64,000 nt of DNA from an uncultured Gemmatimonadota bacterium. GTDB taxonomy: Bacteria > JAAXHH01. The stretch spans positions 1,248,001 through 1,312,000 of the forward strand of contig OX638340.1 in the NCBI GenBank assembly GCA_951812955.1, written 5' to 3'. The translations under genes and the position numbers were made by a program. The notes below the pieces were generated by a model. The model worked only from the letters and a program-made list of their open reading frames with translations. It searched no databases and was not told the origin of the DNA. This document shows, piece after piece, positions 5,208 to 62,871 of the stretch. Position 1 is the first letter of the stretch. Every line of letters starts with the position of its first letter.

Positions 5208-5366
5208 CGACGGCCGTGGTGGCTTCTACTGTGACATTTCTTGCAGGACCACTTTCAATCGCACTGGAAAATCCGTCAGGATCCTTTCAACCCCCTTCTC
5301 GATGAAAGCCCGCAAGCTTCAGCGGTGTCCGCGAAGAAAACACGGACGGTAGTGAAAGGGCTTCGA

Positions 5367-6764
5367 GTGACACGCAAGCCGAATATCATCTATCTGCTGG
5401 CGGACGACTGGGGATACGGGGATGTAAGCTGTCTCAATCCCGATTCCAAAATCCCGACGCTGCATACCGATCGGCTCGCAGGCGAAGGGATGGTGTTTAC
5501 GGATGCCCACAGCAATTCCGCGGTATGCACGCCCACGCGATACGGCGTGCTGACGGGACGTTACTGCTGGCGATCGCGGCTGAAGCGCGGGGTCTTGAAC
5601 GGCTATTCCGAACCGTTGATCGAGGAGGGACGCATGACGGTCCCTACGCTGCTTCGCGACCAGGGATATACGACGGCCTGCGTGGGCAAGTGGCACCTGG
5701 GACTGGGCTGGCAGACCTCCGGAGGAGTGGAGACGGTAAATAAGGAGACGGTGCGTTTCTCCGCTCCTTTGTCCCATGGTCCCCATACGGTGGGATTCGA
5801 CCATTCATACATCATCCCGGCGTCCCTCGATATGGAGCCCTACTGCTATATCGAAGATGGGGAGGTCGTGGAGCTTTCGGTCGAAGAGATAGCGGACTCG
5901 CCTCGGCCGGCCTTTTGGCGTGGAGGGGCCTGCGCGCCGGGGTTTTCCCATGAGACCTGCCTGCTGGAACTGACGATGCGGGCCGAGGGATTTATCCATC
6001 GGCACGCGAAAGAACATGGCGATCGGCCATTCTTTCTTTACTTCCCCGCACCTTCTCCCCATACGCCTCATTTTTCGCGAGACCGATTTGCCGGCCGGAG
6101 CCAGGCGGGCGTGTATGGAGATTACGTGACGGAGCACGACTGGAGTATCGGGCGAATCCTGGAGGCGGTGAAGCGCAATGGCCTGGAGGAGAATACGCTG
6201 ATTATCGTGACGAGTGACAATGGCTGCCACGCAGAGCCTATCGGGTTGAAGGAAAAGTATGATCACCTTGGAAATTACGTTTTCCGGGGTCAGAAGTCAG
6301 ATGCCTGGGACGGCGGTCACCGCATCCCGTTTATCGCGTCGTGGCCGGGCGTGATCGAACCAGGGTCACGATGTGAAAAGACGGTTTGTCTGACGGATCT
6401 GCTTGCGACCGTTGCCGGGATCTGCGAAGTGGACCTGCCGGTAGACGCCGGCGAAGACAGCTGCAATATCCTGCCCTATCTGCGGGGCGAACAGGCAGAG
6501 ACGATCCGTGAAGCGACGGTGCATCACTCGATCAGCGGGGAATTCGCCATACGGAAGGACAGGTGGAAGCTGGTAGAATGCCGCGGTTCGGGTGGGTGGA
6601 CCCTGAAAGAATCGGATGTGCCCGGGGATGCGCCGCCGATGCAACTCTACGATATGGTTTCCGATCCGGGAGAACGGTTAAACCTGTTTAGCAAAAAGCC
6701 CGGTGTGGTCGAGGATTTGCTCGACACGCTGAATCGGTACCGGACCGGCGGCCGGAGCACGTGA
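5367..6764 (+). CDS. formylglycine-dependent sulfatase (arylsulfatase family), no signal peptide
   Basis: NIIYLLADDWGYGD...CTPTRYGVLTGRY (CxPxR) and ...GKWHLG. The ORF-track start at 5241 is TTG. GTG at 5367 (VTRKPNIIYL) has AAAGGG 7 nt upstream; GTG at 5352 is also possible. No hydrophobic N-terminal segment in any version. Confidence 0.8.
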   Translation: MTRKPNIIYLLADDWGYGDVSCLNPDSKIPTLHTDRLAGEGMVFTDAHSNSAVCTPTRYGVLTGRYCWRSRLKRGVLNGYSEPLIEEGRMTVPTLLRDQGYTTACVGKWHLGLGWQTSGGVETVNKETVRFSAPLSHGPHTVGFDHSYIIPASLDMEPYCYIEDGEVVELSVEEIADSPRPAFWRGGACAPGFSHETCLLELTMRAEGFIHRHAKEHGDRPFFLYFPAPSPHTPHFSRDRFAGRSQAGVYGDYVTEHDWSIGRILEAVKRNGLEENTLIIVTSDNGCHAEPIGLKEKYDHLGNYVFRGQKSDAWDGGHRIPFIASWPGVIEPGSRCEKTVCLTDLLATVAGICEVDLPVDAGEDSCNILPYLRGEQAETIREATVHHSISGEFAIRKDRWKLVECRGSGGWTLKESDVPGDAPPMQLYDMVSDPGERLNLFSKKPGVVEDLLDTLNRYRTGGRST

Positions 6765-6765
6765 A

Positions 6766-6850
6766 ACCGCGAGGTAGGTGAGACCTTCGAATCAGGTAAG
6801 GCCGCGAGGTACTTGAGACCGCGAGGCAGGGTAGGCCGCGAGGTACGTGA
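6766..6850. repeat. 4 degenerate copies of a ~20-bp unit centred on CCGCGAGGTA, starting at the sulfatase stop codon
   Basis: Read directly: gtgaAACCGCGAGGTAggtgaga / gtaaGGCCGCGAGGTActtgaga / CCGCGAGGcagggtag / GCCGCGAGGTAcgtgagc, ending at the AAGGAG RBS of the next sulfatase. Confidence 0.55.
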
Positions 6851-6869
6851 GCAAAGGAGTGTGGATGCG

Positions 6870-8714
6870 ATGAACGGCAAGAGACCCAACGTCATACTGG
6901 TTATCACTGACGACCAGGGATACGGGGACCTGGGTTGTACGGGCCACCCCTGGTTGAGGACGCCAAGTATCGATGCATTTCACCGCGACGCGGTCCGCCT
7001 TGCGGATTTCCACGTTTCGCCTCTGTGTACGCCGACGCGCGGAGCCTTGATGACGGGACGGCGACCCGTACGAAACGGCGCATGGGCGACCTGCTGGGGA
7101 CGGTCCATCCTACGGAAGTCCGAGACGACCATGGCGGACGTTTTCAGCGAGGCCGGGTACCGAACCGCCATGTTCGGAAAGTGGCACCTGGGCGACAACT
7201 ATCCCTATCGTCCCCAGGACCGGGGATTCCGGCACGTGGTGGCCCACAAGGGCGGGGGCGTGGGACAGACGCCCGATTTCTGGGGCAACAATTACTTCGA
7301 CGACACCTATTTCCAAAACGGGGAGCCCGTGGAACACGCCGGATACTGCACGGACGTGTGGTTCGACGAGGCGATCCGTTTCATCGAGGGGTGCGCGGCC
7401 GGCCGGTCCGCCGGTTCGTCGCCAGCGCAGAGGCAGCGCCAGGAAGCATCCCCGGCCAGTCCGAACGGAGCGGACAGAGCGGACAGTCCGAACGGAGCGG
7501 ACGGAGCGGACGAGCCGTTCTTCGTTTATCTGGCAACCAACGCACCGCACACCCCTTATCTCGTGTCCGAGGAATACGCCCATCCGTACCAGGGTATTCA
7601 AGATATACCGGAACCCGAGTTCTGCGGAATGATCGCGAACATCGACGAGAATTTCGGCCGACTGCGGCGTACGCTGGCACAACTGGGTCTGGAAGAAAAC
7701 ACCATCCTGGTCTTCATGACCGACAACGGGAGCTCCGGTGGCAGTGAACTCGATGAAAACCAGCACGCGGTGCGAGGTTACAACGCGGGGATGCGGGGCA
7801 AGAAGGGCTCCTACTACGACGGCGGTCATCGCGTGCCCTTCTTCCTTCGCTGGCCTGGAGGCGGTCTCGGGGGAGGACGTGACGTGGACGAGATGACCCT
7901 CCACGTAGACATCCTGCCGACACTCGTCGCGTTGTGCGGGTTGGACGAACCCGATGTGGACTTCGACGGGGTCAGTGTGGCGCCGCTACTTCGTGGTGAG
8001 CGGTCGGGCCTGCCCGGCGACCGGGTGCACTTTCTTCAGTACCGGCAGGATACCGTGCCTCCGGAGAAATGGACCAGCGCGGTCATGACCCGACGTTGGC
8101 GGCTGGTGCGGGGAAAGGAACTGTACGATATCAAGGCCGATCCGGGACAGTGGTGTGATGTCGCCCGGGAGCATCCCGACGTGGTGGACCGGCTGCGATG
8201 TAATCACGACGCCTGGTGGGACGAGATATCACCCGGTCTCGATGTGTATTGCCCCATCGAACTGGGAAGCCCCGCCGAGAATCCCACCCGCCTCTGCGCC
8301 ATGGACGTCCTTGGCGACGTGGCCTGGCACCAGACCCATATTGCCCGGGCACAGGAGAGCAGCGGGACCTGGGCCGTCGAGATCGAAAGGCCGGCCCGCT
8401 ACCGGTTCAATCTTCGCCGGTGGCCCGCCGAACGCGAGCTTGCGATCGACGGCGTGATACCGCCGGACGAGGCGCGCCGCCTTATCTATGCGCCTGAAGA
8501 TGCGGGCGCGCTGGCCATTCAGCCCGTCGAAGCACGCCTGTCCCTGTTCGGTCAAACACACCGCATGACAGTGAGTAAAGGCGATACGGCCGTCGAATTC
8601 ACCCTCGAAATCACACATACGGGTGTGACGAACCTGGAAGCCTCCTTCGTCGACGTGACCGGAGATGCCAGGGGAGCGTTCTATGTGGATGTCGAGCGGC
8701 TGGATGAGGTTTAG
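6870..8714 (+). CDS. formylglycine-dependent sulfatase, no signal peptide, with an acidic low-complexity insertion
   Basis: ATG at 6870 preceded by AAGGAG. NVILVITDDQGYGD...CTPTRGALMTGR...GKWHLG. Insertion SPASPNGADRADSPNGADGADEP is encoded by an 18-bp nucleotide repeat at ~7440-7515. Confidence 0.85.
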   Translation: MNGKRPNVILVITDDQGYGDLGCTGHPWLRTPSIDAFHRDAVRLADFHVSPLCTPTRGALMTGRRPVRNGAWATCWGRSILRKSETTMADVFSEAGYRTAMFGKWHLGDNYPYRPQDRGFRHVVAHKGGGVGQTPDFWGNNYFDDTYFQNGEPVEHAGYCTDVWFDEAIRFIEGCAAGRSAGSSPAQRQRQEASPASPNGADRADSPNGADGADEPFFVYLATNAPHTPYLVSEEYAHPYQGIQDIPEPEFCGMIANIDENFGRLRRTLAQLGLEENTILVFMTDNGSSGGSELDENQHAVRGYNAGMRGKKGSYYDGGHRVPFFLRWPGGGLGGGRDVDEMTLHVDILPTLVALCGLDEPDVDFDGVSVAPLLRGERSGLPGDRVHFLQYRQDTVPPEKWTSAVMTRRWRLVRGKELYDIKADPGQWCDVAREHPDVVDRLRCNHDAWWDEISPGLDVYCPIELGSPAENPTRLCAMDVLGDVAWHQTHIARAQESSGTWAVEIERPARYRFNLRRWPAERELAIDGVIPPDEARRLIYAPEDAGALAIQPVEARLSLFGQTHRMTVSKGDTAVEFTLEITHTGVTNLEASFVDVTGDARGAFYVDVERLDEV

Positions 8715-9996: not shown

Positions 9997-11289
9997 ATGT
10001 CCGTTCTCGGCCTTACCTGTACCCGTTGCGATGCCCAGTATCCACTGGGACCCATGTTCTTCGGTTGTCCCGCTTGCGCTGACGGCCCGGATCGCGGCAC
10101 TGACGACCCCGGTCATGGCGCGGTCGACCTCGGTCGCGGCGCGGCTGCCTTGACCGTGACCTATGACTACCAGGCGATCGCCGCCGAACTGAACGTGGAG
10201 AACTGGAACCGGGCGGGGCACGGCATCTGGCGGTTCGATGCCCTCCTTCCAATTCGGGATCCGTCTGTTCAGATTTCTCTTGGCGAGGGGAACACGGCCC
10301 TTGTGCGGCCCAGGAAAGTCTGCGAAGCGACCGGGTTGTCGAATCTGTTCATAAAGAACGAAACGACCAATCCCACCTGGGCCTTCAAGGACCGCTTCCA
10401 CGCTTCCTCGGTCTCCATGGCGAAGTCCCTGGGCTTCTCCCGGATTACGGCCAGCACCACGGGCAATCACGGCGCTTCGGCCGCGGCCTATGCCGCTGCC
10501 GCGGAGATGGATTCATGCATCATCCTGTGCCACCCGGAATCATCCATGCTCCAGCGGGACATGATCGCCCTGTACGGTGGTCACGCCTTCGTGCTGGAGA
10601 ACCGGTTCAAGTACCTGGACACGCTGATCCGGGATCATGGCTACTATCCCTCCACGACCATGACGCCGATGCCCACCGGTACGCCCTACGGTATCGAGGG
10701 CTACAAGACCATTGCGTTCGAGATCTTCGTACAGCTCGGTGGCCACGTTCCCGACCGTATGTTCTGTCCGATCGCCGCCGGTGATGCGCTTTTCGGTCCG
10801 TGGAAGGGGTTCAACGAGATGCGCCTGCTCGATCTGTCTGATCGGAATCCGGTCATGCACGGTGTCCAGCCGGCGGGATGCAATCCCTACGTACAGTCGT
10901 TCCAGCAGAGACGCAGGGACGTGATCGTCCATCCGGATCCGAGTTCCATCGCCCTTTCCATTCGCGACGACACCGGCGGCCCCTCGGCGCTGCGGGCCAT
11001 ATACGATTCAGGTGGCGACGCGACCGACGTTACCGAAGACGAGATCATCGAGGCGGTGCGCCTGCTCGCGCACAGCGGGTACCTGGTAGAACCCTCCTCG
11101 GCGGCGTCCGTTGCTGGAGCGATCAAGGCGGCCCGGGCGGGTCGACTCGCCCCGGATGAGACCGTCGTCTGCCTGGTCACCGGATCGGGCGCCAAGTGGC
11201 CGGAGGTCATGGCCGAACTCTCCAGTCGAGAAGCGCTCGTCGAGCCCACGTGGGATGAGATCAAGGCGCGGGCAGGCCTCGACGGCTGA
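9997..11289 (+). CDS. threonine-synthase-like PLP enzyme (fold type II) with N-terminal Cys4 zinc ribbon
   Basis: CTRCDAQYP...FGCPAC ribbon, NPTWAFKDR (PLP lysine), STGNHGASAAAYAA. ATG start confirmed. Confidence 0.75.
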   Translation: MSVLGLTCTRCDAQYPLGPMFFGCPACADGPDRGTDDPGHGAVDLGRGAAALTVTYDYQAIAAELNVENWNRAGHGIWRFDALLPIRDPSVQISLGEGNTALVRPRKVCEATGLSNLFIKNETTNPTWAFKDRFHASSVSMAKSLGFSRITASTTGNHGASAAAYAAAAEMDSCIILCHPESSMLQRDMIALYGGHAFVLENRFKYLDTLIRDHGYYPSTTMTPMPTGTPYGIEGYKTIAFEIFVQLGGHVPDRMFCPIAAGDALFGPWKGFNEMRLLDLSDRNPVMHGVQPAGCNPYVQSFQQRRRDVIVHPDPSSIALSIRDDTGGPSALRAIYDSGGDATDVTEDEIIEAVRLLAHSGYLVEPSSAASVAGAIKAARAGRLAPDETVVCLVTGSGAKWPEVMAELSSREALVEPTWDEIKARAGLDG

Positions 11290-24876: not shown

Positions 24877-25077
24877 TCTCGAGCCGTGTCGTTATGAGCC
24901 GCGTCGATCAATGGACACGTAAGCGCAAGCTGCGGAGTCATGAGCCGCGTTGATCAATGGACACGTATGCGCAAGCTGCGGAGTCATGAGCCGCGTTGAT
25001 CAATGGACACGTATGCGCAAGCTACGGAGTCATGAGCCGCGTTGATCTCAGACTGCGCGTCATGAGCAGCGTCGAGT
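24877..25077. repeat. 46-bp tandem direct repeat, ~4 copies (tcatgagccgcgttgatcaatggacacgtatgcgcaagctgcggag), degenerate at both ends
   Basis: Read directly. Period of 46 bp measured between successive tcatgagccgcg occurrences. Confidence 0.85.
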
Positions 25078-26295: not shown

Positions 26296-26392
26296 CGAAA
26301 AGCGCATCAAGGTGTGCAACGTATGAGAAGCGCATCAAGGTGTGCAACGTATGAGAAGCGCATCAAGGTGTGCAGCTTATGAGAAGCGTGTA
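26296..26392. repeat. 30-bp tandem direct repeat x3 (agcgcatcaaggtgtgcaacgtatgagaag)
   Basis: Read directly. The third copy has 2 substitutions. Confidence 0.85.
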
Positions 26393-27209: not shown

Positions 27210-27983
27210 ATGAATCCCCAGCCGGCGAATCACGCCCCGGAATCGGCTTTAACCGCGTTTGCTTTTTTGAGTGTACTCTTCGCCCTGGTTTCGGTCACGG
27301 CCTTGGCGTGTTCAAATGACGCGGGTGAAAACCAGTCCACGTCCGATACGGCACGGATGGTAGCTGTCGATGCGCAGCAGAACGGCGAAGCATCGGAGTC
27401 GCGTGGCGGAGAAAGGGCTTCCAGCGGGGAATCAGGTGAGCACGGCGGGGATGGCGAAGCGATGGAATCCGGCGGGGAATCAGGTGAGTACGGTGGGGAT
27501 GGCGGAGAAAACGAAGGCGAGGGGGGCGGTAGTGACGAAGGCGAAGAATCCGGCGCGTTGCTGGCCCTGGATGAGACCTATGATACGGTACGCAGAGGCG
27601 CCCGGCTTATCCTGAACTACGACGCCGGTACCAATTCCTTCGTCGGAACGGTGTCGAACACCACCGGTGAAACCCTTCGCCGCGTCCGGGTCGAAGTGCA
27701 CCTGTCCAACGGCACGGAACTGGGCCCCACGACTCCTGTCGATCTCACTTCGGGTGAGATGACCGAAGTTACCCTTTCTGCAACGGCAGAACCTTTTACC
27801 GGCTGGACGCCCCATGCCGAGGTAGACACGGGGGACGGTAGCGGAGGCGAGCATGGTGAAGGCGGTGAAGGCGGTGAAGGCGGTGAAGGCGGCGGTGAGC
27901 ATGGTGGACGCGGTGAAAGCAGCGAAGGTGGTGGAGAGGACGGCGAGCACGGTGAAGGTGGCGAGGGTGACGGGAGCGCGTAA
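27210..27983 (+). CDS. paralog of the preceding lipoprotein (same conserved core ~70% identical, longer GEHG/GEGG tails)
   Basis: MNPQPANHAPESALTAFAFLSVLFALVSVTALACS signal. Core ARLILNYDAGTNSFVGTVSNTTGETLRRVRVEVHLSNGTELGPTTPVDLTSGEMTEVTLSATAEPFTGWTPHAEVD. Start chosen at the ATG preceding the signal; the ORF-track start at 27102 is TTG with an acidic, non-signal-like extension. Confidence 0.55.
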   Translation: MNPQPANHAPESALTAFAFLSVLFALVSVTALACSNDAGENQSTSDTARMVAVDAQQNGEASESRGGERASSGESGEHGGDGEAMESGGESGEYGGDGGENEGEGGGSDEGEESGALLALDETYDTVRRGARLILNYDAGTNSFVGTVSNTTGETLRRVRVEVHLSNGTELGPTTPVDLTSGEMTEVTLSATAEPFTGWTPHAEVDTGDGSGGEHGEGGEGGEGGEGGGEHGGRGESSEGGGEDGEHGEGGEGDGSA

Positions 27984-28191: not shown

Positions 28192-29292
28192 GTGCAACCA
28201 ACGCCAGCCAACCCAAGCCTGAAACAAATCCCGCTCCTGACCGCGAGCCAGATCGCCCGGTTCAAGCGCGACGGCTTCCTCGTTCTTCCCGCCGCGCTAG
28301 ACCCCGAACTCTGCCGCCAGGCCAGGGACGCGATGTGGGCCGCGGTGGCAACGCACCATCCCGTCATGAAGCGCGACGATCCCTCCACCTGGGCGCCGTT
28401 CAACGATGAAGTAAGCGGCCAACTTAAAGCGAAGCAGCCCGAGATCGGCGGGGACCCCTATTTCTTCACCGAAGGCCACCGCTTCTATGTCCGAAATGGC
28501 ACCGAGCCACTCATGCTCGATCTGGCCCCCAGACCCTTGTGGCAGGTCGCCGAGCAATTACTTGGTCAGGGCACGGTGGTATGGCCCGCCGGAGCGGATG
28601 CGTCCGGCATGACGACGGGACCGTGCTTCATGTCCGACGAAGCGGTGAGCGGTCTGGCCAGCCATGGAGTCAAAGAGACCGGGCAATGGCCTGAGAAGGG
28701 ATCCTTCACCACGGAAGAAGCGCTGCGCCTGCCCAGGACCGGTCCGGTGTGGTCGACCGGACAAGGGACACGCGGTTTGTACTGCACCCTGCCCAACAGC
28801 CCGTCTCCCGGTCCGGATTACCGCCGCGCCCATTCGGACGGGGTCTGCTACGGACGCGTCCGGTTTCAGGTAACCGCTTATGTCGACGACCTGCCGGCCA
28901 ATTCCGGTGGCTTCACGGTGTGGCCAGGCAGCCACAGACGAATCTGGCGCGAGCAGTGGCAGACCTTTCTCGAAGGTGAAAAGTACACGGACGACAACCT
29001 GGCGGAACGCAAGGCCGACGGTTATAACGATCCCGTCATCCAGCGCATCAAGGCCGACACCCGACCCGTTGATTGCCACGGTCCCGCCGGCACGGTGGTC
29101 TTGTGGCACACCAAGATCCTGCATATTGCCGGACAGAATACCTCCTCAGATATCATTCGCCAGGCAACTATCTACGGTTTCATGAAAACGCCGGAATCCC
29201 TTCCCGATCCGCTTGTAACGGACCACACCAACATGGATATCTGGCGTGACTGGTCCGATGAAGTGCGGGCTGTTGATGAGCGCCAGGAATAG
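28192..29292 (+). CDS. PhyH-family Fe(II)/2OG dioxygenase
   Basis: LTASQIARFKRDGFLVLPAAL, HSDG (HxD), WPGSH, VVLWHTKILHIAGQN. GTG start with GGAAAAG upstream. Confidence 0.7.
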   Translation: MQPTPANPSLKQIPLLTASQIARFKRDGFLVLPAALDPELCRQARDAMWAAVATHHPVMKRDDPSTWAPFNDEVSGQLKAKQPEIGGDPYFFTEGHRFYVRNGTEPLMLDLAPRPLWQVAEQLLGQGTVVWPAGADASGMTTGPCFMSDEAVSGLASHGVKETGQWPEKGSFTTEEALRLPRTGPVWSTGQGTRGLYCTLPNSPSPGPDYRRAHSDGVCYGRVRFQVTAYVDDLPANSGGFTVWPGSHRRIWREQWQTFLEGEKYTDDNLAERKADGYNDPVIQRIKADTRPVDCHGPAGTVVLWHTKILHIAGQNTSSDIIRQATIYGFMKTPESLPDPLVTDHTNMDIWRDWSDEVRAVDERQE

Positions 29293-29661: not shown

Positions 29662-30053
29662 CGGAGCCGGTCTGGATAGAAACACGCGATGCACTGATGT
29701 TGCACGAGCGCCTTATTGTGCTACACGGTGGTGCGGCGGGGGTGCGCGACAAAGGCTTGCTGCAATCAGCTCTGGCCCGAGCGCGTCAAATCTACGCGTA
29801 TTCGGATACGCCAGATCTCATCGAAATGGCGACGGCCTATACAGTGAGCATCGTGCGCAACCATCCATTTGTAGATGGCAACAAGCGTACCGGCTTTGTA
29901 GTCGGAATCCTGTTTCTTGAGCTGAACGGATTTCACTTCACCGCCACTCAAGCGTGCGCGGCTCAGTCCGTTATAGAACTAGCAGGCGGGTCACTTGATG
30001 AAGCGGGCTACACGGCGTTCCTGCGCGCGAATGTCGAAACGCTGAAAGGATGA
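29658..30053 (+). CDS. doc: Doc-family toxin (Fic/Doc fold)
   Basis: HPFVDGNKRTGF (Doc variant of the Fic motif), LHERLIVLHGG. GTG start overlapping the antitoxin stop (GTGA). Confidence 0.85.
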   Translation: MTEPVWIETRDALMLHERLIVLHGGAAGVRDKGLLQSALARARQIYAYSDTPDLIEMATAYTVSIVRNHPFVDGNKRTGFVVGILFLELNGFHFTATQACAAQSVIELAGGSLDEAGYTAFLRANVETLKG

Positions 30054-30061
30054 ACGGAACG

Positions 30062-30130
30062 CGGAGCGATGAAACGAAAGTGGAGCGATGAAACGAACAT
30101 AGAGCGGTGAGCGGTGAACGGAACACGGAG
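30062..30130. repeat. short direct repeats (ggagcgatgaaacgaa x2 plus related gagcggtgaacggaac copies) downstream of doc
   Basis: Read directly. Degenerate. Confidence 0.4.
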
Positions 30131-30212
30131 CGATGACATCACATCTGCAACGCCCAACCGCCGCCACAACAAGCCTTAAGTCAGACCCTAAATCTGGAGG
30201 AATGGAGGGAAC

Positions 30213-31145
30213 ATGTCGACCATTACCAAACCGGGCAACGAAACCGGTGCCGATTCAGCTGTCGAGCCCGCCGCCGCATTTGACGCCGACTCCACATCTG
30301 CCGCCGCCCCCGTTCCCATGACCGAGGAGCAGAAGTTCTTCTTCGACCTGAAGGGCTGGATCCTCGTGCCCTCCGTATTGTCGGAGACCGAGATCGAGGA
30401 AATGAAGGCCGAAGCGTACGCTGCGGTAAAACCGGACTATCAGGGTAAAAACAGCGACCTGCAACAGGGCTATCAGGGCATGCTGGCCAACCTGCTCGAT
30501 CATCCGGCCGTGGTGGGCATTCTGAACGAGATCCTCACCGAGCCGCCCTTTGTGGGGGACGACCATTACGGATTCCGCTGCGAGAACTCCTTCCTCATGG
30601 TGCGGGAACCCGGCTGGGAGTCGACTGTTAAGGGCACCGGGCTGCCCCATGTCGTGCGCCCTCCCCAGCAGGCCAACGCCATGCGCTACCAGGTGCAGGG
30701 CGGCAAGATCTTCGCGGGACTGACGCGCGTCGTATGGGAGTTGGAGGAAGTCCGGGCGGGGTACGGCGGCACCTCCTTTCTGAGCGGTTCGCACAAGGCT
30801 CATTTCAATTACGGCGGACCGGACCGGTACCGGCCCAACATCAGCGAATCGCCCTGGGAGGAAAGTCTATACGCCGCCATGGAGGATTACAGTTGTCCGC
30901 CGGGGTCGATGCTGGTCTTCACCGAAAGCCTCATCCACGCTGCGAACGATTGGACCAATCCGGACAACCGTCGATGCGCTGTATTCAACTGCTACAACTC
31001 GATCTGGGCGCAGTGGCACCGGCTCAATCTCGACCACGAGGTTATCGATAAGATGCCACCCAAGCGGCAGTCCCTCTTCCGCGGTGCGTGGCAACTGGGC
31101 GGCGACGGGAATCGTACGTACTCGGCGGACAATCGGTCGGTGTGA
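30213..31145 (+). CDS. PhyH-family Fe(II)/2OG dioxygenase paralog
   Basis: MTEEQKFFFDLKGWILVPSVLSETEIEEMK PhyH N-terminus, GSHK..., SLIHAAN. ATG with GGAGG RBS. Confidence 0.65.
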   Translation: MSTITKPGNETGADSAVEPAAAFDADSTSAAAPVPMTEEQKFFFDLKGWILVPSVLSETEIEEMKAEAYAAVKPDYQGKNSDLQQGYQGMLANLLDHPAVVGILNEILTEPPFVGDDHYGFRCENSFLMVREPGWESTVKGTGLPHVVRPPQQANAMRYQVQGGKIFAGLTRVVWELEEVRAGYGGTSFLSGSHKAHFNYGGPDRYRPNISESPWEESLYAAMEDYSCPPGSMLVFTESLIHAANDWTNPDNRRCAVFNCYNSIWAQWHRLNLDHEVIDKMPPKRQSLFRGAWQLGGDGNRTYSADNRSV

Positions 31146-31283
31146 ACCGGCTCGTCTACTCGAGTCGACCAGTGGCGCGCCTCGCCGCATTACCGGTCGG
31201 TGTCGGTTCGCACCGGCGAATACGTTCACGCGCCGACCGAAAAACGCACTCGAGCGTATACCATCCACGACGAAAGATATGAG

Positions 31284-32567
31284 ATGACCGAAATACCCGG
31301 TGGCCTGGATGCCGTCCCGCCGCACCCCCCTTCCGTCCCGCGAAGTTCCGACCTGAAGATCACCGCCGTGGAGACCCTCATCCCCGATGATATCATGCCG
31401 GGGTTGGTCCTGCTTCGGATCCACACCGACACGGGCGCCGTCGGCCACGGGGAGACCTACTACGTCCCCCACGCGGTGGCCGCCGTGATCCATGACTGGA
31501 TGGCCCGCCGTCTGCTGGGCAGCGATCCATGTTCTATCGAGCACCACTGGCGGTTTTTCTATGAACGCATGAGTGCTTTCGGATCCCGCGGAGCGGAGAT
31601 GCGTGCCTTGAGCGCCGTAGACCTGGCCCTCTGGGATATCCTCGGCCAGGTGTGCGGACTACCTGTCTGGCAACTACTGGGCGGAAAGGCGCGGGAAGCC
31701 GTACGAGTCTACAACAGTTGCGGCGGTCCCACCTATGGACGACGTCCACCCGGGGCGCCTTCGGAGCAGGGCTGGCCCGGCCACGGTGACATCGGCAAAC
31801 CAGGGCCTTTGGAAGACAACTGGGCAGCACACAACGCCGCGGGCGACCTGGCCGAGGAACTTGTGGCGGAAGGCTACACGGGCATGAAGTTCTGGACCTT
31901 CGACCGGGCGTACCGGGCCCACGGAGCGAGTTACCTTCCCATGTCTACGGTCCGGGCATGAGTCAAGCCTCTGGAGGAGGTGCGCAAACGGGTGGGCGAC
32001 CGGATCGAGATCCTCCTAGACGGCCACGGATTCTTCCAGTTGCCCGCGGCATTACGTATCGCCGAGGCTGTACGGGACCTGAACCTGATGTGGCTCGAAG
32101 ACGTCATGCGCCTGGACAACGTGGACACGCTCAGGGATTTCCGCGACAAGGCGGGCGTCCCCCTGGCCGTCAGCGAGATGTTCATCAGCCGGGAAGACTA
32201 CCGGCACGTGCTGGAGAAAAACGCGGCCGACTACCTGATGGTGGATCCCACCTGGGTGGGCGGCATCAGCGAGACCAGGCGCCTGGCCGAAATGGCCCAG
32301 GGCTACAACATCCCGGCAGCCATGCATGATTGTACCGGTCCTTTGACGCTCTTCGCGGGCATCCATGTCGCCACTTCCGTACCCAACGTCGTCATCCAGG
32401 AGTCCGTCCGGGCCCATATCCGGACCTTCTACGATCTGCTCATCGAGCCCAACATCGTCATCGAGAACGGTTTTGCCCGGCCACCGGGGGGACCGGGCCT
32501 GGGCACTCGACTGCGCCCGGAGCTTTTCGACCCTGATCACAGGGGATATCGGATCTCGCGAGGCTAA
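31284..32567 (+). pseudogene. enolase-superfamily (mandelate racemase / mannonate-galactonate dehydratase subgroup) gene interrupted by an in-frame TGA at ~31959-31961
   Basis: ORFs 31200..31961 and 31980..32567 are in the same frame. The N part has the capping domain (KITAVETL...). The C part has barrel blocks (LLDGHG, LMWLEDV, EMF, MVDPTWVGGISE, AMHDCTGP). The junction MSTVRA*VKPLEEVRKRVGDRIEIL is contiguous conserved sequence. Confidence 0.65.
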
Positions 32568-33529: not shown

Positions 33530-34306
33530 ATGCTAAAGGCCGAGATAGTCGAAGCGGTTGATATCGAGCGCGCCGCCGCCATCTTCCACCGGGACGGATT
33601 CGTCTGCGTAAGCGACCCCATGGACGAGAAACAGTTCGCCCTGAACCGCTCGGGCGCCGAACGTGTTATGCAGGAGCAGGAAGCCGAATTCGGGCGTGAA
33701 AAAATGAACCGGGGGTTCGCGCGTCAATCTTTCGGAAGTCAGTTGCACAACTGGGAGTGGTGCATCCTGATCGACTTGCCGACAATACTGCCGATATTAG
33801 ATACGATCTGGAGTAGCGACGACTATACCTGCACCGGCGCCGGGGGCGACTATTCCCTGCCTGGCGCGAAGATCCAGCACCTGCACTCCGATCGGAAAGA
33901 GGACATTTTCAATGATCCCCAGGGGCGGGTCAGCCTCCGGGACGTCCCGGCGCCCTTTATCGTAATCAACTTCACCATGGTGGATTTCACCGTGGAAAAC
34001 GGCGCCATCCGGTTCATTCCCGGCACCCATCGATCCCATGCGCCGATCCCTTCACTCGAAGAGGAACCGGAATGGATGCGCACCAACCACCTGTGCGCGC
34101 CGGCGAACACGGCCATCATCCGCGACGTGCGCTGCTGGCACGGGGGCACGGCGAACAACTCGGACATGAAACGGCCGATGACAAGCGTGGGATTCCATGC
34201 GCCGTGGCACCGCGCAGTCGAGGAGAAAACCTTGCCGAGGGAGCACTATAATCGGCTGTCTGCGCGGGCCCAGCGGCTGTGCCGGCATATCGTGGAGGCG
34301 GCATAG
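33530..34306 (+). CDS. PhyH-family Fe(II)/2OG dioxygenase paralog
   Basis: AAAIFHRDGFVCVSDPMDEKQ, HSD, FIPGTHRSH, RCWHGGTAN. Confidence 0.65.
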   Translation: MLKAEIVEAVDIERAAAIFHRDGFVCVSDPMDEKQFALNRSGAERVMQEQEAEFGREKMNRGFARQSFGSQLHNWEWCILIDLPTILPILDTIWSSDDYTCTGAGGDYSLPGAKIQHLHSDRKEDIFNDPQGRVSLRDVPAPFIVINFTMVDFTVENGAIRFIPGTHRSHAPIPSLEEEPEWMRTNHLCAPANTAIIRDVRCWHGGTANNSDMKRPMTSVGFHAPWHRAVEEKTLPREHYNRLSARAQRLCRHIVEAA

Positions 34307-36544: not shown

Positions 36545-36636
36545 CGACCTGGATGCCCACCTCAGTTTGACCTGGATGCCCACCTCAGCTTGACCTGCAT
36601 GCCCATCTCAATCCTGCCTGCATACCCATCTCAGAA
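36545..36636. repeat. 23-bp tandem repeat x4 (gacctggatgcccacctcagttt), progressively degenerate; the last copy overlaps the TonB-dependent receptor stop codon
   Basis: Read directly. Confidence 0.7.
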
Positions 36637-39600
36637 CGTATACCTTACCCCAATCTGGACCTGCCACCTGGATGAGAGGTTGGTAGTCTGGAACACGTCC
36701 TCACGGTCGATTTTCCCATCTTCGTTGGCGTCCCGGACCCGGAGGTCCAGGTCCGGCCTGCCCTGTTCGTCGTATCCGTCGAAATTGAACAGGCCTGCGG
36801 CGTCGAACAGCACGTAGCGGCTCTGACCCCAGGCGCCGTTGATCAGGTTGGCCAGGTTCAACACGTCCAGCGTCAATTCGAAGTGGTGGGTCCGAATCGA
36901 GGGCAGTTCCTGGATCAGGCGCAGGTCCAACCGGTTTCGCCACGGCGAGCGGGACGCGTTGCGTTTGACGATGGCGCCCCGGGCCGCGCGCAAAACGGGA
37001 TCGGAATCGACAAAAGCGTCGATCGCCCTCCACTCGTCGTCGGTTACCATTGCGCTGACGTCGCTCCTGCTCGCCGGGATGTAGGCGAGGTCGTTGCCCC
37101 TTATGCCGTCGCCGTTCACGTCGTCGGCGTACATGTAGCTGTAGGGATCTCCCGCGCTGCCTTCGTAAAAGAGGGAGAGCGTCGTGGCGAGTCCCCGTCC
37201 GAATTCGTATTTCCATGACCCGGTGGCCAGGACCCGGTGACGGACTTCGAAATCGGACGTTGCGGTCGTCTCGCCGTTGGGGTCGTCGGTCTCGTTGTAC
37301 TGCCAGTTGGAGATGGCGCGGCTGGACCGTCCGCTGTTGACGTCCTCGGCGTCCTGGAACACGTAGGCGACGCTTCCGAAGAGCCCGGGCAGAAAGGACG
37401 CGTTCCCTCTCTTGCGTAGGCGCAGTGTCAGGTTGAACTGGCGCCCCTTGTCCGTGTTCTCCAGGAGTATGACATTGGTGAAATCGCCGCTGACCGTCTT
37501 CCCAGCGTAGTCGGACCGGCCGTCCGGAGTCCTTCCCGTCGGGCGGCCGTTGTCGCCGATGTTGAGGTTGCGGAAACGGACCTCGTCGATGTTACGGGCA
37601 AGCAGGAGTTCCACGGTTCCGACCAGATCCAGGGGCAGTCTGCGGTCGAGGGCGAGGTTGGCGCGAAAAACCCGGGGCAGCCGAAATTCCGGGTCGATGA
37701 CGTTTACCTCCGAGGTCTCGGGCGCGTCGAGACGGCCATCCAGCGGAAGCGGTTGCGCGAAAGGATCCGCCACGAACGCAGGAACGTCCTGGTCCCGGAA
37801 GGATGCAAGATCGATGCGGGTGAAATCCACCCCCGTGTTGCTGTACGCGTTGGAGAGCCAAACGGCCGGCGGCAGCCCCGCGAAAACCCCGCCGCCGCCG
37901 CGGAACTGCGTCCCGCGGTCCCCTCCCGCGTCGAAGTTGAACCCGAAGCGCGGCGACCAGAGGATCCGGCCGCCCGGAGTCCGGTCCGTCCGATGTCCGG
38001 CGAACTGGCGGGCGAATCGGTCGTTGGACAGAGGTTTGTCCGGCAGGATCGGCACTTCGGCCCGCAATCCGAATTTCACGCTGAGCCGAGGACTGATCCG
38101 CCAATTGTCCTGCGCGTAGAATCCCATCTGCACGTAGTCCCACGCGGCGCGGGGCTGTTCGACGCCGGGCACCATAGATCGGCTAAGGAGGTAGCGGGTA
38201 GGCTCACCACGCTCAAAGGCCTCGATGCCGTCGAACTCGTAGGCGCCGTAGTAGTCCTGAATGAACAGGTTGTCGAAAGAAATGAACTCGTTGTGCGTGC
38301 CGATCGTTATGGTATGATCCGCCCTGAACAGGTGAAGGTCGTTGGTGAATTCGAAGGTGTCCTGGTTCAGCGCGTTGGCCTGGGAGAACCGCTCCACGCC
38401 AAGCCGGACCTCGCCGAGGAACGCTCCGCCTGCCTCTTCGAGGTCGATCTGTACCTGGGGGAAGGTGCCGGACAGCGGCGACCTGCTGTCCCGCACGCGG
38501 CTGTAGGACAACCGAGCTTCATTGGCCAGGCTGCCGGAGAAAGTGCTGTTGAGTTGCGCGACCGTGGACTGGGTGACGTTATCGCGTGTAAACTGGTTGC
38601 TGGTCAGTGTAAAGATTGTGCGACCCCGGCGCAATCCGTCGTCCAGGTCGCCGGTTACATAGTTGTGGCGCAGGGTGAGCCGGTGCCTGGAAGACAGGTT
38701 GACGTCAAGCCGCCCGAAGAATTTCTCATTACGCGTGCGCTGAGAAAAGGGATCGAATCCCCCGGCATCATAGCCGTAATTGTCGCGGGCGATGTCCACG
38801 ATTTGCTGAAGGGCAGCCGACCCGGCGCCGAAACGGATGGGCTGGCCTGAATCCGCGGGACCGACGCTCGAAGGACTTGCACGCCGCCGCAGTTCACCGT
38901 TGATGAAGAAGAAAACCCGGTTGGTGACCAACGGTCCACCAAGCCGAAAACCAAGCTGATAGTCGGCAAAATCTCCGAATTTGTCGCCTTCCAGGTCCCC
39001 CACCAGGGATTCGTTCCGGCCGAAATAGTACAGGGAGCCGCGGAACCGGTTCGTTCCACTGCGCGTTACCGCGTTGATGAGCCCGCCCGCGAATCCACCC
39101 GAACGGACGTCAAAGGGCGCCACCTGGACCTGAAACTCTTCGATGGCATCGAGGCTGATCAGCTGGGCATTCACCTGCCCTGTGGGCAGACCCTCGTTCG
39201 ACAGCCCGAAGGCATCGTTCAGCACGGCGCCGTCCACCTGGAAGTTGTTCATGCGGTTGTTCTTACCCGCGATACTTTGCCCGCCGGCTTTCGACGCCGC
39301 TTCAGGCGCCAGCCGGGTATAGTCCTGTATGCTCCGGGCAATGGATGGCAGCCGGGCGATTTCGTTGGCCGTGACGTGGGTCTCGGTTCCGATGTTCGAT
39401 GCGTTGAGCACCTCGTCCCTGTGGGCTGTGACGACGACTGCCTCGGTCTCGATGACGTCCTCGCGCAACCCGAAGTTCACACGCAGGTTCTGCCCCATCG
39501 ACAGGGTTACATCCCGGCGGACAGCGGTTTGATATCCGATATAACTGACTCGTATCTCGTACGGACCGCCGGTCCTGAGTCCCGCAATGTTGTACCGCCC

Positions 39601-39792
39601 GTCGGCACGGGAAAACACGCCTGAAGAGACTCCCGTGGGCTCATGCAGGGCGATCACGGTGGCGTCAGGGAGCGGCGCACCATTGTCATCCAGAATCCTG
39701 CCGTTGAGCGTCGCGGTTGTAATGCCCTGCGCGTTGACCAGGGTCGATGTGGGAAGGACCAGAATCAGAATAGTTCGGAGCAAGATACGCAT
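36631..39792 (-). CDS. TonB-dependent receptor with N-terminal carboxypeptidase-regulatory-like domain
   Basis: Signal peptide MRILLRTILILVLPTSTLVNAQG. TLNGRILDDNGAPLPDATV...RYNIAGL (CarbopepD_reg). Plug (TAHRDEVLNASNIGTETHV). 1053 aa ending ...WQVQIGVRYTF (C-terminal Phe). Confidence 0.9.
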   Translation of the reverse strand: MRILLRTILILVLPTSTLVNAQGITTATLNGRILDDNGAPLPDATVIALHEPTGVSSGVFSRADGRYNIAGLRTGGPYEIRVSYIGYQTAVRRDVTLSMGQNLRVNFGLREDVIETEAVVVTAHRDEVLNASNIGTETHVTANEIARLPSIARSIQDYTRLAPEAASKAGGQSIAGKNNRMNNFQVDGAVLNDAFGLSNEGLPTGQVNAQLISLDAIEEFQVQVAPFDVRSGGFAGGLINAVTRSGTNRFRGSLYYFGRNESLVGDLEGDKFGDFADYQLGFRLGGPLVTNRVFFFINGELRRRASPSSVGPADSGQPIRFGAGSAALQQIVDIARDNYGYDAGGFDPFSQRTRNEKFFGRLDVNLSSRHRLTLRHNYVTGDLDDGLRRGRTIFTLTSNQFTRDNVTQSTVAQLNSTFSGSLANEARLSYSRVRDSRSPLSGTFPQVQIDLEEAGGAFLGEVRLGVERFSQANALNQDTFEFTNDLHLFRADHTITIGTHNEFISFDNLFIQDYYGAYEFDGIEAFERGEPTRYLLSRSMVPGVEQPRAAWDYVQMGFYAQDNWRISPRLSVKFGLRAEVPILPDKPLSNDRFARQFAGHRTDRTPGGRILWSPRFGFNFDAGGDRGTQFRGGGGVFAGLPPAVWLSNAYSNTGVDFTRIDLASFRDQDVPAFVADPFAQPLPLDGRLDAPETSEVNVIDPEFRLPRVFRANLALDRRLPLDLVGTVELLLARNIDEVRFRNLNIGDNGRPTGRTPDGRSDYAGKTVSGDFTNVILLENTDKGRQFNLTLRLRKRGNASFLPGLFGSVAYVFQDAEDVNSGRSSRAISNWQYNETDDPNGETTATSDFEVRHRVLATGSWKYEFGRGLATTLSLFYEGSAGDPYSYMYADDVNGDGIRGNDLAYIPASRSDVSAMVTDDEWRAIDAFVDSDPVLRAARGAIVKRNASRSPWRNRLDLRLIQELPSIRTHHFELTLDVLNLANLINGAWGQSRYVLFDAAGLFNFDGYDEQGRPDLDLRVRDANEDGKIDREDVFQTTNLSSRWQVQIGVRYTF

Positions 39793-39915
39793 GGCTGGTT
39801 ATGTCCCGGATCGATAAATCGTTGCACAATATCACGAATGTCGAATATAATACCCCACAAGCCTGAAAACGACACGGAACTTCGATGCGCTTTCGTAAAA
39901 TGGCAAATCGGTGCC

Positions 39916-40029
39916 GGTCACACAGAGCCTGGCCGCCTGTCACACAGAACCTGGCCGCCGGTCACGCAGAGCCCGGCTTCATGTCATGTACAGCCGACCT
40001 CATGTCACGTATAGCCCGACCTCCTGACC
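39916..40029. repeat. 22-bp tandem repeat x5 (ggtcacacagagcctggccgcc), each unit beginning (T/G)GTCA(C/T)
   Basis: Read directly. Lies in the divergent intergenic region between the TonB-dependent receptor (minus) and uxuA (plus); the last copy is ~40 bp upstream of the uxuA ATG. Confidence 0.8.
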
Positions 40030-40065
40030 AGTCCTATAGGTCGTATACCAGAAAAGGAGCCTGCC

Positions 40066-41076
40066 ATGGCGTTGATGGAAATTGAACCCGGTCTCAAGAT
40101 CGCGGGTCAGATGTCTCCCGAACCGACGCGGGAAGACCTGGAGTTCGCCCAGCAGTTGGGCATAGAATACGTCTGTCTGTGGACGGACGGTGAACACGCG
40201 AACTACGACTATTTCATGAGCCGCAGGGAGATCTACGAGGAAGCAGGCATCAAGATCTACGGATTCGGCAACAGCGACGTGCACAACCAGGATGCCATTG
40301 TGCTCAACCTGCCGAACCGGGACGCGAAAGTGGAGCAGTACAAGAGATACATTCGCGACCTCGGCAGGGCGGGCATCCCCTATACGACGTACGCACACAT
40401 GGGCAACGGAATCTGGAGCACGGAGCGGGAGACCACCCGCGGCGGCGCCCCGGCCCGGGGTTTCGACCTGGCCAGCGCCGAGGAGGGGCACTGGGGCGGC
40501 CGGTTGTTCAGGATGCCGCTGACCCACGGACGAGTGTACAGCGAGGACGAAATATGGGACAATTTCGCCCATTTCGTCGGTGAAGTCGCGCCCGTCGCCG
40601 AAGAGGCCGGCGTCCGGATCGGCATTCATCCGGACGATCCTCCCCAGCCGGAACTCGGCGGCATTCCGCGGTGTATTTTCAGCAGTTTCGACGGCTATTA
40701 CCGGGCCATGGAGATCGCCGACAGCCCGAACGTGGGGCTCTGCTTCTGTATCGGCTGCTGGCTAGAGGGCGGATCGCTGATGGGCAGGGGCGTGGAAGAT
40801 TCGCTGCGACATTTCGGCGAACAGGGCAAGGTCTTCAAGGTCCACTACCGCAACGTGGACCAGCCGCTGCCTCATTTCGTGGAGACCTTCATCGATAACG
40901 GATATTTCGACATGTACCAGGCCGCGCGGGTCCTGGAAGAAACCGGCTTCTACGGGGTCATGATTCCTGATCACATTCCCGAGATGGCGGGAGACGGCCG
41001 GATCGGCTACGCCTACTCGATCGCGTACATGAAGGCGCACGCGGACCGGGCGAGAGCGGAATGCGCCGCCGCGTAA
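40066..41076 (+). CDS. uxuA: D-mannonate dehydratase
   Basis: VAEEAGVRIGIHPDDPP matches UxuA VAEEVGVRMAVHPDDPP, plus overall xylose-isomerase-like TIM-barrel blocks. AAGGAG RBS. Confidence 0.85.
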   Translation: MALMEIEPGLKIAGQMSPEPTREDLEFAQQLGIEYVCLWTDGEHANYDYFMSRREIYEEAGIKIYGFGNSDVHNQDAIVLNLPNRDAKVEQYKRYIRDLGRAGIPYTTYAHMGNGIWSTERETTRGGAPARGFDLASAEEGHWGGRLFRMPLTHGRVYSEDEIWDNFAHFVGEVAPVAEEAGVRIGIHPDDPPQPELGGIPRCIFSSFDGYYRAMEIADSPNVGLCFCIGCWLEGGSLMGRGVEDSLRHFGEQGKVFKVHYRNVDQPLPHFVETFIDNGYFDMYQAARVLEETGFYGVMIPDHIPEMAGDGRIGYAYSIAYMKAHADRARAECAAA

Positions 41077-41119
41077 GTGTATAGCGGGCCGGGCGAGAGC
41101 AAAGTGCGCCGCCGCGTAA
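41046..41119. repeat. spaced direct repeat (~31 bp x2): uxuA 3' terminus plus TAA duplicated ~43 bp downstream
   Basis: cgggcgagagcggaatgcgccgccgcgtaag versus cgggcgagagcaaagtgcgccgccgcgtaag. Confidence 0.6.
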
Positions 41120-41168
41120 GCGTAAACGACTGTTCCTGACCTTGTCCGAGGAAGGACCGGCGCGCGTC

Positions 41169-44931: not shown

Positions 44932-45061
44932 GGCAGGCATCCTCGTACGTTGCGGCGACGAGGTCAGGACTGGCCGGCAGGCATCCTCGTTCATCTCTGC
45001 AACGAGATCCGGTCCCGCCGGCAGACCGGACGAATTAGCAGAAGGAGGACAGACCTTCAGC

Positions 45062-52337: not shown

Positions 52338-52400
52338 GCCATCTCACGCTTTGCCATCATTCGTTCTGCCATTATTCATTCTGCCATTACTCGTCTTGTC
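52338..52400. repeat. 3 copies of a ~13-bp unit (ttctgccatta(t/c)tc) immediately upstream of the FAD-oxidase gene; the 13-mer GTTCTGCCATTAT recurs upstream of clpB
   Basis: Read directly: ttgccatcattc gttctgccattattc attctgccattactc. Confidence 0.5.
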
Positions 52401-56131: not shown

Positions 56132-56248
56132 GATTCCACAGGCACCGACCTATGAATCTGCAGGCCGCCGACCCTTGATTCTGCAGGCCGCCGTCAGCGG
56201 GCGGGTCCACATGCGTCGCGGAGTGGCACAAGGAAAGGCTCATAGCAT

Positions 56249-56749: not shown

Positions 56750-56759
56750 CCGAGCCCGG

Positions 56760-56868
56760 GTAGCGCGTTGCGGCGAGGCGTCGACAAACTCAGTCCGGGG
56801 TGGCGCGTTGCGATGAGGCGTCGAAAAACTCAGTACGGGGTGGCGCGGTGCGATGAGGCGTCGATTTC
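56760..56868. repeat. 40-bp tandem repeat, 2.7 copies (gtggcgcgttgcgatgaggcgtcgaaaaactcagtacggg)
   Basis: Read directly. Lies between the lipoprotein stop and the GAGGAG RBS of the BNR-repeat gene. Confidence 0.8.
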
Positions 56869-58597: not shown

Positions 58598-58627
58598 TGC
58601 CATTTTGGCAGTTCTGCCATTATGGCA
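58598..58627. promoter_or_regulatory. two adjacent 13-bp palindromes TGCCA-N3-TGGCA (tgccattttggca, tgccattatggca) ~200 bp upstream of clpB
   Basis: Read directly. Does not match CIRCE (HrcA) or CtsR consensus. AT-rich context. Confidence 0.35.
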
Positions 58628-58827
58628 TATCTGGTTATTTTCATTCCGGTCTAGCAAACGGAAACTGCCTTCCGGTTATGTCGAAACCCCCGGAAACGCG
58701 GGGATAACACTCCATGGCACACGTTTTGCAATCTATAGGGTGTGTAATGCGTGGGGATAGGGACTGGAGCTGGGACTGAGCGCATACACATACAGATAAA
58801 TTGAAAACGAGCGAGGAGGCAAAGGGC

Positions 58828-62802: not shown

Positions 62803-62871
62803 GAACACGTACCCGTTCCCGTACCCTGAAGCGTTCCCGTACTCTGAAGTGTTCCCGTACACTGAAGCGTT
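62803..62871. repeat. 18-bp tandem repeat x3.5 (gttcccgtacNctgaagN) abutting the start codon of the SSF transporter gene
   Basis: Read directly. The last partial copy runs into the ATG, leaving no room for an SD. Confidence 0.8.

Follow-up and report, generated by a model that had tools for sequence, protein, structure and literature searches.

The tandem array situated between two divergent genes at positions 39916–40024 of the window, the whole stretch of 64 kb analysed here, is probably a neutral or near-neutral, degenerate and locus-specific minisatellite lying in the 5′ leader of a UxuA-like gene. We infer an origin in an ancestor common to the species of the window and the two species closest to it: replication slippage or unequal exchange would there have copied a ca. 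22-bp piece of a dispensable part of this leader in tandem, after which single units would have been gained and lost and point substitutions would have accumulated at an approximately neutral rate. Under this reading the array would have no sequence-specific regulatory job, and the regulatory information of the gene pair would reside in a core of ca. 75 nt upstream of it; the sole likely effect of the array would be a longer leader and a greater distance from the core to the ribosome binding site.

The array, to which no strand is assigned, consists of five degenerate units arranged head to tail, with consensus TGTCACGCAGAGCCCGGCCTCA: u1 (39916–39937, 22 nt, GGTCACACAGAGCCTGGCCGCC), u2 (39938–39959, 22 nt, TGTCACACAGAACCTGGCCGCC), u3 (39960–39981, 22 nt, GGTCACGCAGAGCCCGGCTTCA), u4 (39982–40002, 21 nt, TGTCATGTACAGCCGACCTCA) and u5 (40003–40024, 22 nt, TGTCACGTATAGCCCGACCTCC). 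Pairs of units match at 13–20 of 22 positions (ca. 60–91% identity), with GTCAC and AGCC retained in most units. Tandem Repeats Finder (TRF) called the array with a period of 22, scores of 78–102 and 77–86% matches, and an independent repeat search returned the identical register. A degenerate pattern of the unit had four matches in the 64-kb window, all of them within the array, against 0.14 expected, and when the whole window was shuffled ten times by mononucleotide, zero to one array per shuffle reached a score of at least 50. The sequence itself, the TRF call, the pattern count and the shuffles confirm that the five-unit repeat noticed in the first-pass annotation is real and non-random, and the motif (T/G)GTCA(C/T), which had been placed at the start of each unit, is present in all five. 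Two details of that description need correcting. The units had been said to be spaced at exactly two helical turns, but the steps are 22, 22, 22 and 21 bp; and the array, said to fill a gap of 270 bp, takes up ca. 109 bp of an intergenic stretch that measures 273 bp from one start codon to the other (39793–40065). The segment immediately downstream (40025–40046, no strand assigned, TGACCAGTCCTATAGGTCGTAT) is a putative, very degenerate sixth unit or the edge of the array; in the unit identity matrix it matches the units at 10–14 of 22 positions, a weak homology, and it keeps 20–21 of its 22 positions in the loci of the two closest relatives, L001 and L002. The repeat search detected no inverted repeats or palindromic operators within the array.

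To the right of the array lies a gene for a UxuA-like or xylose-isomerase-like TIM-barrel protein (40066–41076, + strand, 336 aa; Pfam PF03786 and PF01261), and to the left a gene for a protein with CarboxypepD_reg and outer-membrane beta-barrel regions, similar to TonB-dependent receptors (36631–39792, − strand, 1053 aa; Pfam PF13620 and PF25183). The pair is divergent, as had been described, but the names given to it, "TonB-dependent receptor" and "uxuA", are too precise: Pfam finds no Plug domain in the first protein, and the second scores with the NCBIfam uxuA models below the cut-offs for true mannonate dehydratase. Used as query against species-representative genomes, the UxuA-like protein yielded 80 loci. 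The first 17 of them, together with L020, encode proteins with 94–99% identity and come from sponge or coral MAGs or closed chromosomes of ca. 3.9 Mb; these sister genomes are labelled Latescibacterota, Gemmatimonadetes or just "bacterium". The other loci are from sponge symbionts of the Poribacteria and the Caldilineaceae, where the UxuA-like protein is 71–77% identical, and the sharing of this protein across phyla (window 40066–41076; L022–L080) suggests horizontal transfer among sponge symbionts. The nucleotide identity of the window is ca. 94–95% to L001 and L002, and ca. 84–90% to the other sister loci compared, L003–L005. Synteny of the divergent gene pair is kept in L001–L012, L014–L017 and L020.

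An alignment (A1) of the region beside the start codon of the outer-membrane-protein gene, from 17 species with the same divergent pair, contains 30 invariant columns, all of which map to positions 39813–39882 of the window. The conserved core of the divergent intergenic region (39813–39885, + strand) reads GATAAATCGTTGCACAAT, then GTCGAATATAATACCCCACAAG, then CGACACGGAACTT, and across the alignment the motifs follow the order GATAAATCGTT(G/T)CACAAT, GTCGAATATAATACCCCACAAG and CG..ACGGAA(A)CTT. A promoter scan found a single sigma-70-like site, against 0.2 expected, which faces the UxuA-like gene (39823–39851, + strand) and comprises a −35 box, TGCACA (39823–39828), a spacer of 17 bp and a −10 box, TATAAT (39846–39851). 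Invariant columns 57–59 and 61–62 correspond to TAT.AT of the −10 box, and columns 34 and 36–38 fall in the −35 box. The core sequence CGATAAATCGTT overlaps the −35 box, an A/T-rich −10 region is shared, and CG..ACGGAA is located at ca. +20 to +30. The core motifs GATAAATCGTTKCACAAT and GTCGAATATAATACCYCAC occur once each in the window, with no dispersed copies there. It is likely that this core of ca. 75 nt (39813–39885) is a bidirectional promoter plus operator for both genes; no promoter for the outer-membrane-protein gene itself was recognised.

From the position of the −10 box, transcription of the UxuA-like gene would start near 39858, and the array would then span ca. +59 to +167 of a leader of ca. 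208 nt, which ends with a ribosome binding site, AAGGAG (40054–40059, + strand), 6 nt upstream of the ATG. The array starts 65 bp 3′ of the conserved −10 box and ends 42 bp 5′ of the ATG. The first-pass annotation had placed it in the promoter, where changes in its length would alter promoter spacing; lying downstream of the −10 box, the array alters instead the length of the leader and leaves the −35/−10 spacing as it is.

The 22-bp array is restricted to the window and its two closest relatives (L001/L081 and L002/L082–87); 14 sister species or more lack it while retaining both the gene pair and the promoter core. Among sister species, the segment between the core and the ribosome binding site varies from 0 to ca. 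200 nt. The distance from TATAAT to the ATG is 214 nt in the window and L001, 193 nt in L002, 67–69 nt in L005, L009 and L020, and 49–50 nt in L003, L006, L007, L008 and L012, where the core abuts the ribosome binding site; it is 158–252 nt in the remaining species measured (L013 and L015 could not be scored). All species of the lineage (L001–L012, L014–L017 and L020) have (A)GGAG before the ATG, whatever the length of the leader. In the short-leader species the entire intergenic region is ca. 110–120 bp, so the core must accommodate both promoters, the variable segment being dispensable. The contents of this segment are also diverse: L017 carries at the same spot an unrelated array of 19 bp × 4.7, L014 contains another repeat, and L004, L010, L011, L015 and L016 have unrelated single-copy sequence. 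One stretch in L010 is unit-like, with 18 of 21 positions matching, and this resemblance suggests that it may represent the single-copy ancestor of the array.

The length of the leader, or an RNA feature within it, might nevertheless be selected to tune translation of the UxuA-like gene or the stability of its mRNA. A counterpoint to neutrality is that the window and L001 both have leaders of 214 nt, reached through different unit duplications, which could hint at selection on length; additionally, most species outside the groups with 49–50 and 67–69 nt keep a leader of 158–252 nt. We nonetheless consider a selected spacer or RNA-level element improbable, given the five species whose leader is 49–50 nt long, with the core next to the ribosome binding site, and the behaviour of the RNA. 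No Rfam family matched positions 39500–40400 at E ≤ 10, and the folding of the leader and of its complement did not go beyond that of shuffled sequences (z-scores of +0.86 and +0.27). A cis-regulatory leader RNA, either a riboswitch or an attenuator, was rejected as a candidate on the same two grounds, the lack of an Rfam match and of structure beyond shuffles.

The arrays of the three array-bearing species are built from orthologous units and differ from each other by whole units. The order of units is AA′BCD in the window and ABCD′D in L001, as well as in the independent metagenome contig L081, while L002 contains four units, the second and third of them divergent. The earlier suggestion of a slippage-type repeat tract is therefore right in so far as whole units were gained and lost between species, but not in its corollary of an altered promoter spacing. 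Orthologous units of the window differ by ca. 7% from those of L001 and by ca. 18% from those of L002; at four-fold degenerate sites of the flanking genes the differences are 12–14% and ca. 9%, respectively, and on this comparison the array is neither clearly constrained nor clearly accelerated. Between the units of the window and L001, 6 of 87 positions differ versus ca. 11 expected; this deficit, like the retention of GTCAC and AGCC in most units, speaks against neutrality, but it is not significant and is biased by the choice of best matches. A minimal-event count over 14 units arrived at 21 events, with 8 of the 22 columns invariant, in agreement with a uniform substitution model (p = 0.70). 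A naive permutation test of column conservation was significant, but we rejected it as invalid because the units share ancestry.

These differences of whole units among the three species would also be compatible with a contingency tract, in which frequent slippage shifts the copy number and thereby switches or tunes the flanking genes in a form of phase variation, and the array does lie in a leader, where length could affect mRNA stability or translation. We regard such a role as very improbable. Units that are ca. 60–91% identical are a poor substrate for slippage, and the array is situated neither between a −35 and a −10 box nor within a coding region. Moreover, the variation in copy number among close assemblies that the first-pass annotation had proposed to look for did not appear. 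L001 and L081 are 99.47% identical over 5.1 kb and align without gaps across both the 22-bp array and a neighbouring 48-bp array; six contigs of the L002 type, from different samples, have identical arrays, although they are at least 99.9% identical overall, and being nearly clonal they provide a weak test. An exact-protein look-up (UxuA, XerD with two starts, and the FAA-hydrolase) returned no further assembly of the species of the window, and a metagenome scan with a pattern from the right flank returned one contig only, of the L001 type. In one of the contigs related to L002, L085, ca. 95 bp are missing at the start of xerD (ca. 3505–3516) in comparison with the closed chromosome L082 (3608–3714), perhaps because of a gap in the scaffold, perhaps by genuine deletion.

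Alternatively, the units could be phased sites for a cooperatively binding transcription factor, in the style of iterons, Pho boxes or LytTR sites, by which the sub-clade would control one or both genes; this was the geometry favoured in the first-pass annotation. The period is regular, at 21–22 bp, (T/G)GTCA(C/T) recurs at the starts of the units, and the array has been retained in three species at ca. 5% divergence. The TGTCAC/T of the units is also reminiscent of a PhoB half-site. However, the array is missing from 14 or more sister species in which both the gene pair and the core are present, and the motif is confined to a single locus: no other copies of the unit were found in the 64-kb window or in ca. 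1 Mb of related sequence (80 loci), apart from the array and its orthologs, so that the search elsewhere for the motif, advised earlier, came back empty within this material. A second half-site at a distance of 11 bp is lacking, no column-specific constraint is left once shared ancestry is allowed for, and a period of 22 bp is unremarkable among those of the lineage, which range from 12 to 80 bp. Likeness to a PhoB, LytTR or GntR box was accordingly rejected, a second half-site in phase being absent and conservation lacking. Pfam and NCBIfam scans of the ca. 48 genes of the window recognised no gene for a DNA-binding regulator or a Rep protein, in agreement with the earlier remark that no local regulator is encoded there; the Pfam matches are to enzymes, transporters, sulfatases, XerD, Lnt and ClpB, and a few ORFs had no match. 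With the array missing from sister species, its motif at one locus and no regulator gene recognised in the window, we think it unlikely that the units are a binding array. Its annotation as an operator or an iteron is unwarranted, and it should not be annotated as such.

The neutral reading agrees with the abundance of tandem arrays in this genome. Counting arrays with a period of at least 10 and a TRF score of at least 50, the window contains 17, of which 15 are in the 12.6% of the DNA that is non-coding, with densities of 1.86 per kb of non-coding and 0.036 per kb of coding sequence. Those 15 occupy as many of the 44 intergenic gaps, among them co-directional gaps, a divergent gap and a convergent one (2204–2309). 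Besides the array under study, the intergenic arrays are located at 2204–2309, 6759–6851, 10104–10144, 24894–25047, 26300–26388, 30049–30136, 36546–36634, 41041–41124, 44932–45024, 52352–52389, 56145–56193, 56758–56864, 58598–58633 and 62814–62871; these fourteen have periods of 15–46 bp and 2–3.8 copies, and several are 96–98% identical between copies. The periods of the intergenic arrays (15–46 bp) show no excess at multiples of 10.5. Each unit is unique to its own locus, and the 15 intergenic units of the window are mutually unrelated. The two coding arrays (7453–7511 and 27841–27956) repeat with periods of 27 and 48 bp, each divisible by three; the 27-bp array is within a sulfatase gene, between two stretches of the Sulfatase domain, and the 48-bp array, with a sub-period of 9 bp, is in an ORF without a Pfam match that is rich in GGTGAAGGC repeats.

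This abundance extends to the lineage, where array periods range over 12–80 bp. The density is 0.266 arrays per kb in the window and 0.264 in 18 sister-species loci, against 0.048 in the Poribacteria loci, 0.031 in the Caldilineaceae loci, 0.030 in three more distant relatives and 0 in a 50-kb control region of Escherichia coli K-12; the lineage has therefore 5–9 times the density of the co-resident symbionts represented by the Poribacteria and Caldilineaceae loci. For the Poribacteria only total densities were compared, because our crude gene caller, based on GC3, fails on their lower-GC loci. The array under study is thus one member of a wider class of tandem repeats, both in the window and in the lineage, which is the alternative that the first-pass annotation had itself set against a special role. 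Our literature search found nothing relevant on intergenic tandem repeats in sponge symbionts or Latescibacterota, the "repeats" in PMC12993501 being protein repeats and CRISPR.

Short duplications are also recurrent at other junctions. Where the UxuA-like gene meets xerD, the last codons plus stop codon of the former (GCGCCGCCGCGTAAG) have been duplicated in tandem in 10 of 17 species and are single-copy in the other seven. The duplications are situated at 41041–41124 in the window, 3514–3666 in L001, 6983–7136 in L005, 6990–7095 in L006 and 6992–7064 in L008, and they are also found in L003, L011, L012, L014 and L016. They have at least seven unit lengths or boundaries (21, 27, 29, 30, 43/48, 62, and ca. 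63 or longer), which indicates recurrent and independent duplication at one junction. Since they span the stop codon, these duplications leave the UxuA-like protein unchanged, and the pattern is that expected if short duplications arise often and at random and are then sieved by selection. The outer-membrane-protein gene also contains duplications, in the stretch that encodes the N-terminus and signal peptide (L007, 5815–5865; L008, 5785–5877; L009, 5806–5852; L012, 5770–5884), which would be predicted to lengthen the N-terminus. Their TRF periods are 24 and 30, with a 15-bp sub-repeat in L008 and L012.

We propose that short tandem duplications would be habitually seeded in this lineage and would survive where they are tolerated, that is, in intergenic sequence or, within coding sequence, in frame. 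More tentatively, the array could reflect an unusual mutational regime of this sponge- and coral-associated lineage, although we hold this to be rather less than an even proposition. Duplications of 12–80 bp would then arise so frequently that about one third of the intergenic gaps hold one, perhaps from a peculiarity of replication or repair, such as the loss of single-strand exonucleases that suppress slipped misalignment. Selection for intergenic spacers might be an alternative cause of the excess of arrays.

Taken alone, the array has very little significance, and the core at 39813–39885 is a better place to look for the regulation of the gene pair. More interest attaches to the excess of arrays across the lineage and to duplications that recur at the same junctions: dense, locus-specific minisatellites that arise repeatedly de novo offer a possible natural system in which to follow the birth and death of tandem repeats in bacteria. 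Genomes this rich in arrays also call for caution in the assembly of MAGs from short reads and in the prediction of regulons from motifs.

Other features of the window are recorded here in their own right. It contains four genes for PhyH-family dioxygenases (696–2147, 28192–29292, 30213–31145 and 33530–34306), one of them fused to HEAT repeats, as well as two adjacent sulfatase genes (5241–8714), a content of dioxygenases and sulfatases that is typical of the catabolism of sponge symbionts. A gene of the enolase superfamily (MR_MLE, 31200–32567) is split by an in-frame TGA (31959–31961) into ORFs for the N-domain and the C-domain; the split might reflect pseudogenisation, an error in sequencing or recoding.

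The array has partial likenesses to several known systems. Plasmid iterons and Pho boxes are likewise direct repeats of ca. 20–22 bp in phase; unlike them, the array has no replication or Rep context, is not conserved at orthologous promoters and has no further copies in the available sequence. With phase-variable repeats in leaders it shares the situation of a tandem repeat 5′ of a start codon, in a presumed leader. Well-known examples of phase-variable repeats are the TA repeats between the −35 and −10 boxes of Haemophilus hif and the AGAT repeats in the leader of Moraxella uspA2, tracts of short, perfect units that switch at high frequency. In contrast, the units of the array are long and diverged, and there is no polymorphism among close assemblies.

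Mycobacterial interspersed repetitive units (MIRUs), described by Supply and coworkers, are reportedly arrays with units of tens of bp that lie between co-directional genes, some of them overlapping stop codons. Other arrays of the window resemble them in this respect, such as those at 41041–41124 and 36546–36634, which are between co-directional genes or overlap stop codons. MIRUs, however, are a dispersed family, with consensus types shared by many loci, whereas every array of the window has its own unit and the one studied here is between divergent genes.

The array also resembles the intergenic VNTR or minisatellite loci of bacteria, with a unit of 10–100 bp repeated head to tail, specific to its locus, intergenic and without a dedicated protein partner. 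Such loci are used for strain typing by MLVA and appear in a catalogue of small variable segments (Touzain et al., 2010; PMC2884548). In that study minisatellites are a minor class of such segments in E. coli, each genome alignment yielding only ca. 18 non-PU loci of this type. The lineage differs from E. coli in having arrays in about one third of its intergenic gaps, and the present array differs from a typical VNTR in being old, degenerate and stable at divergences of up to 0.5%. As in other VNTRs and minisatellites, its copy number differs between related genomes, from AA′BCD in the window to ABCD′D in L001, four units in L002 and none in at least 14 sister species.
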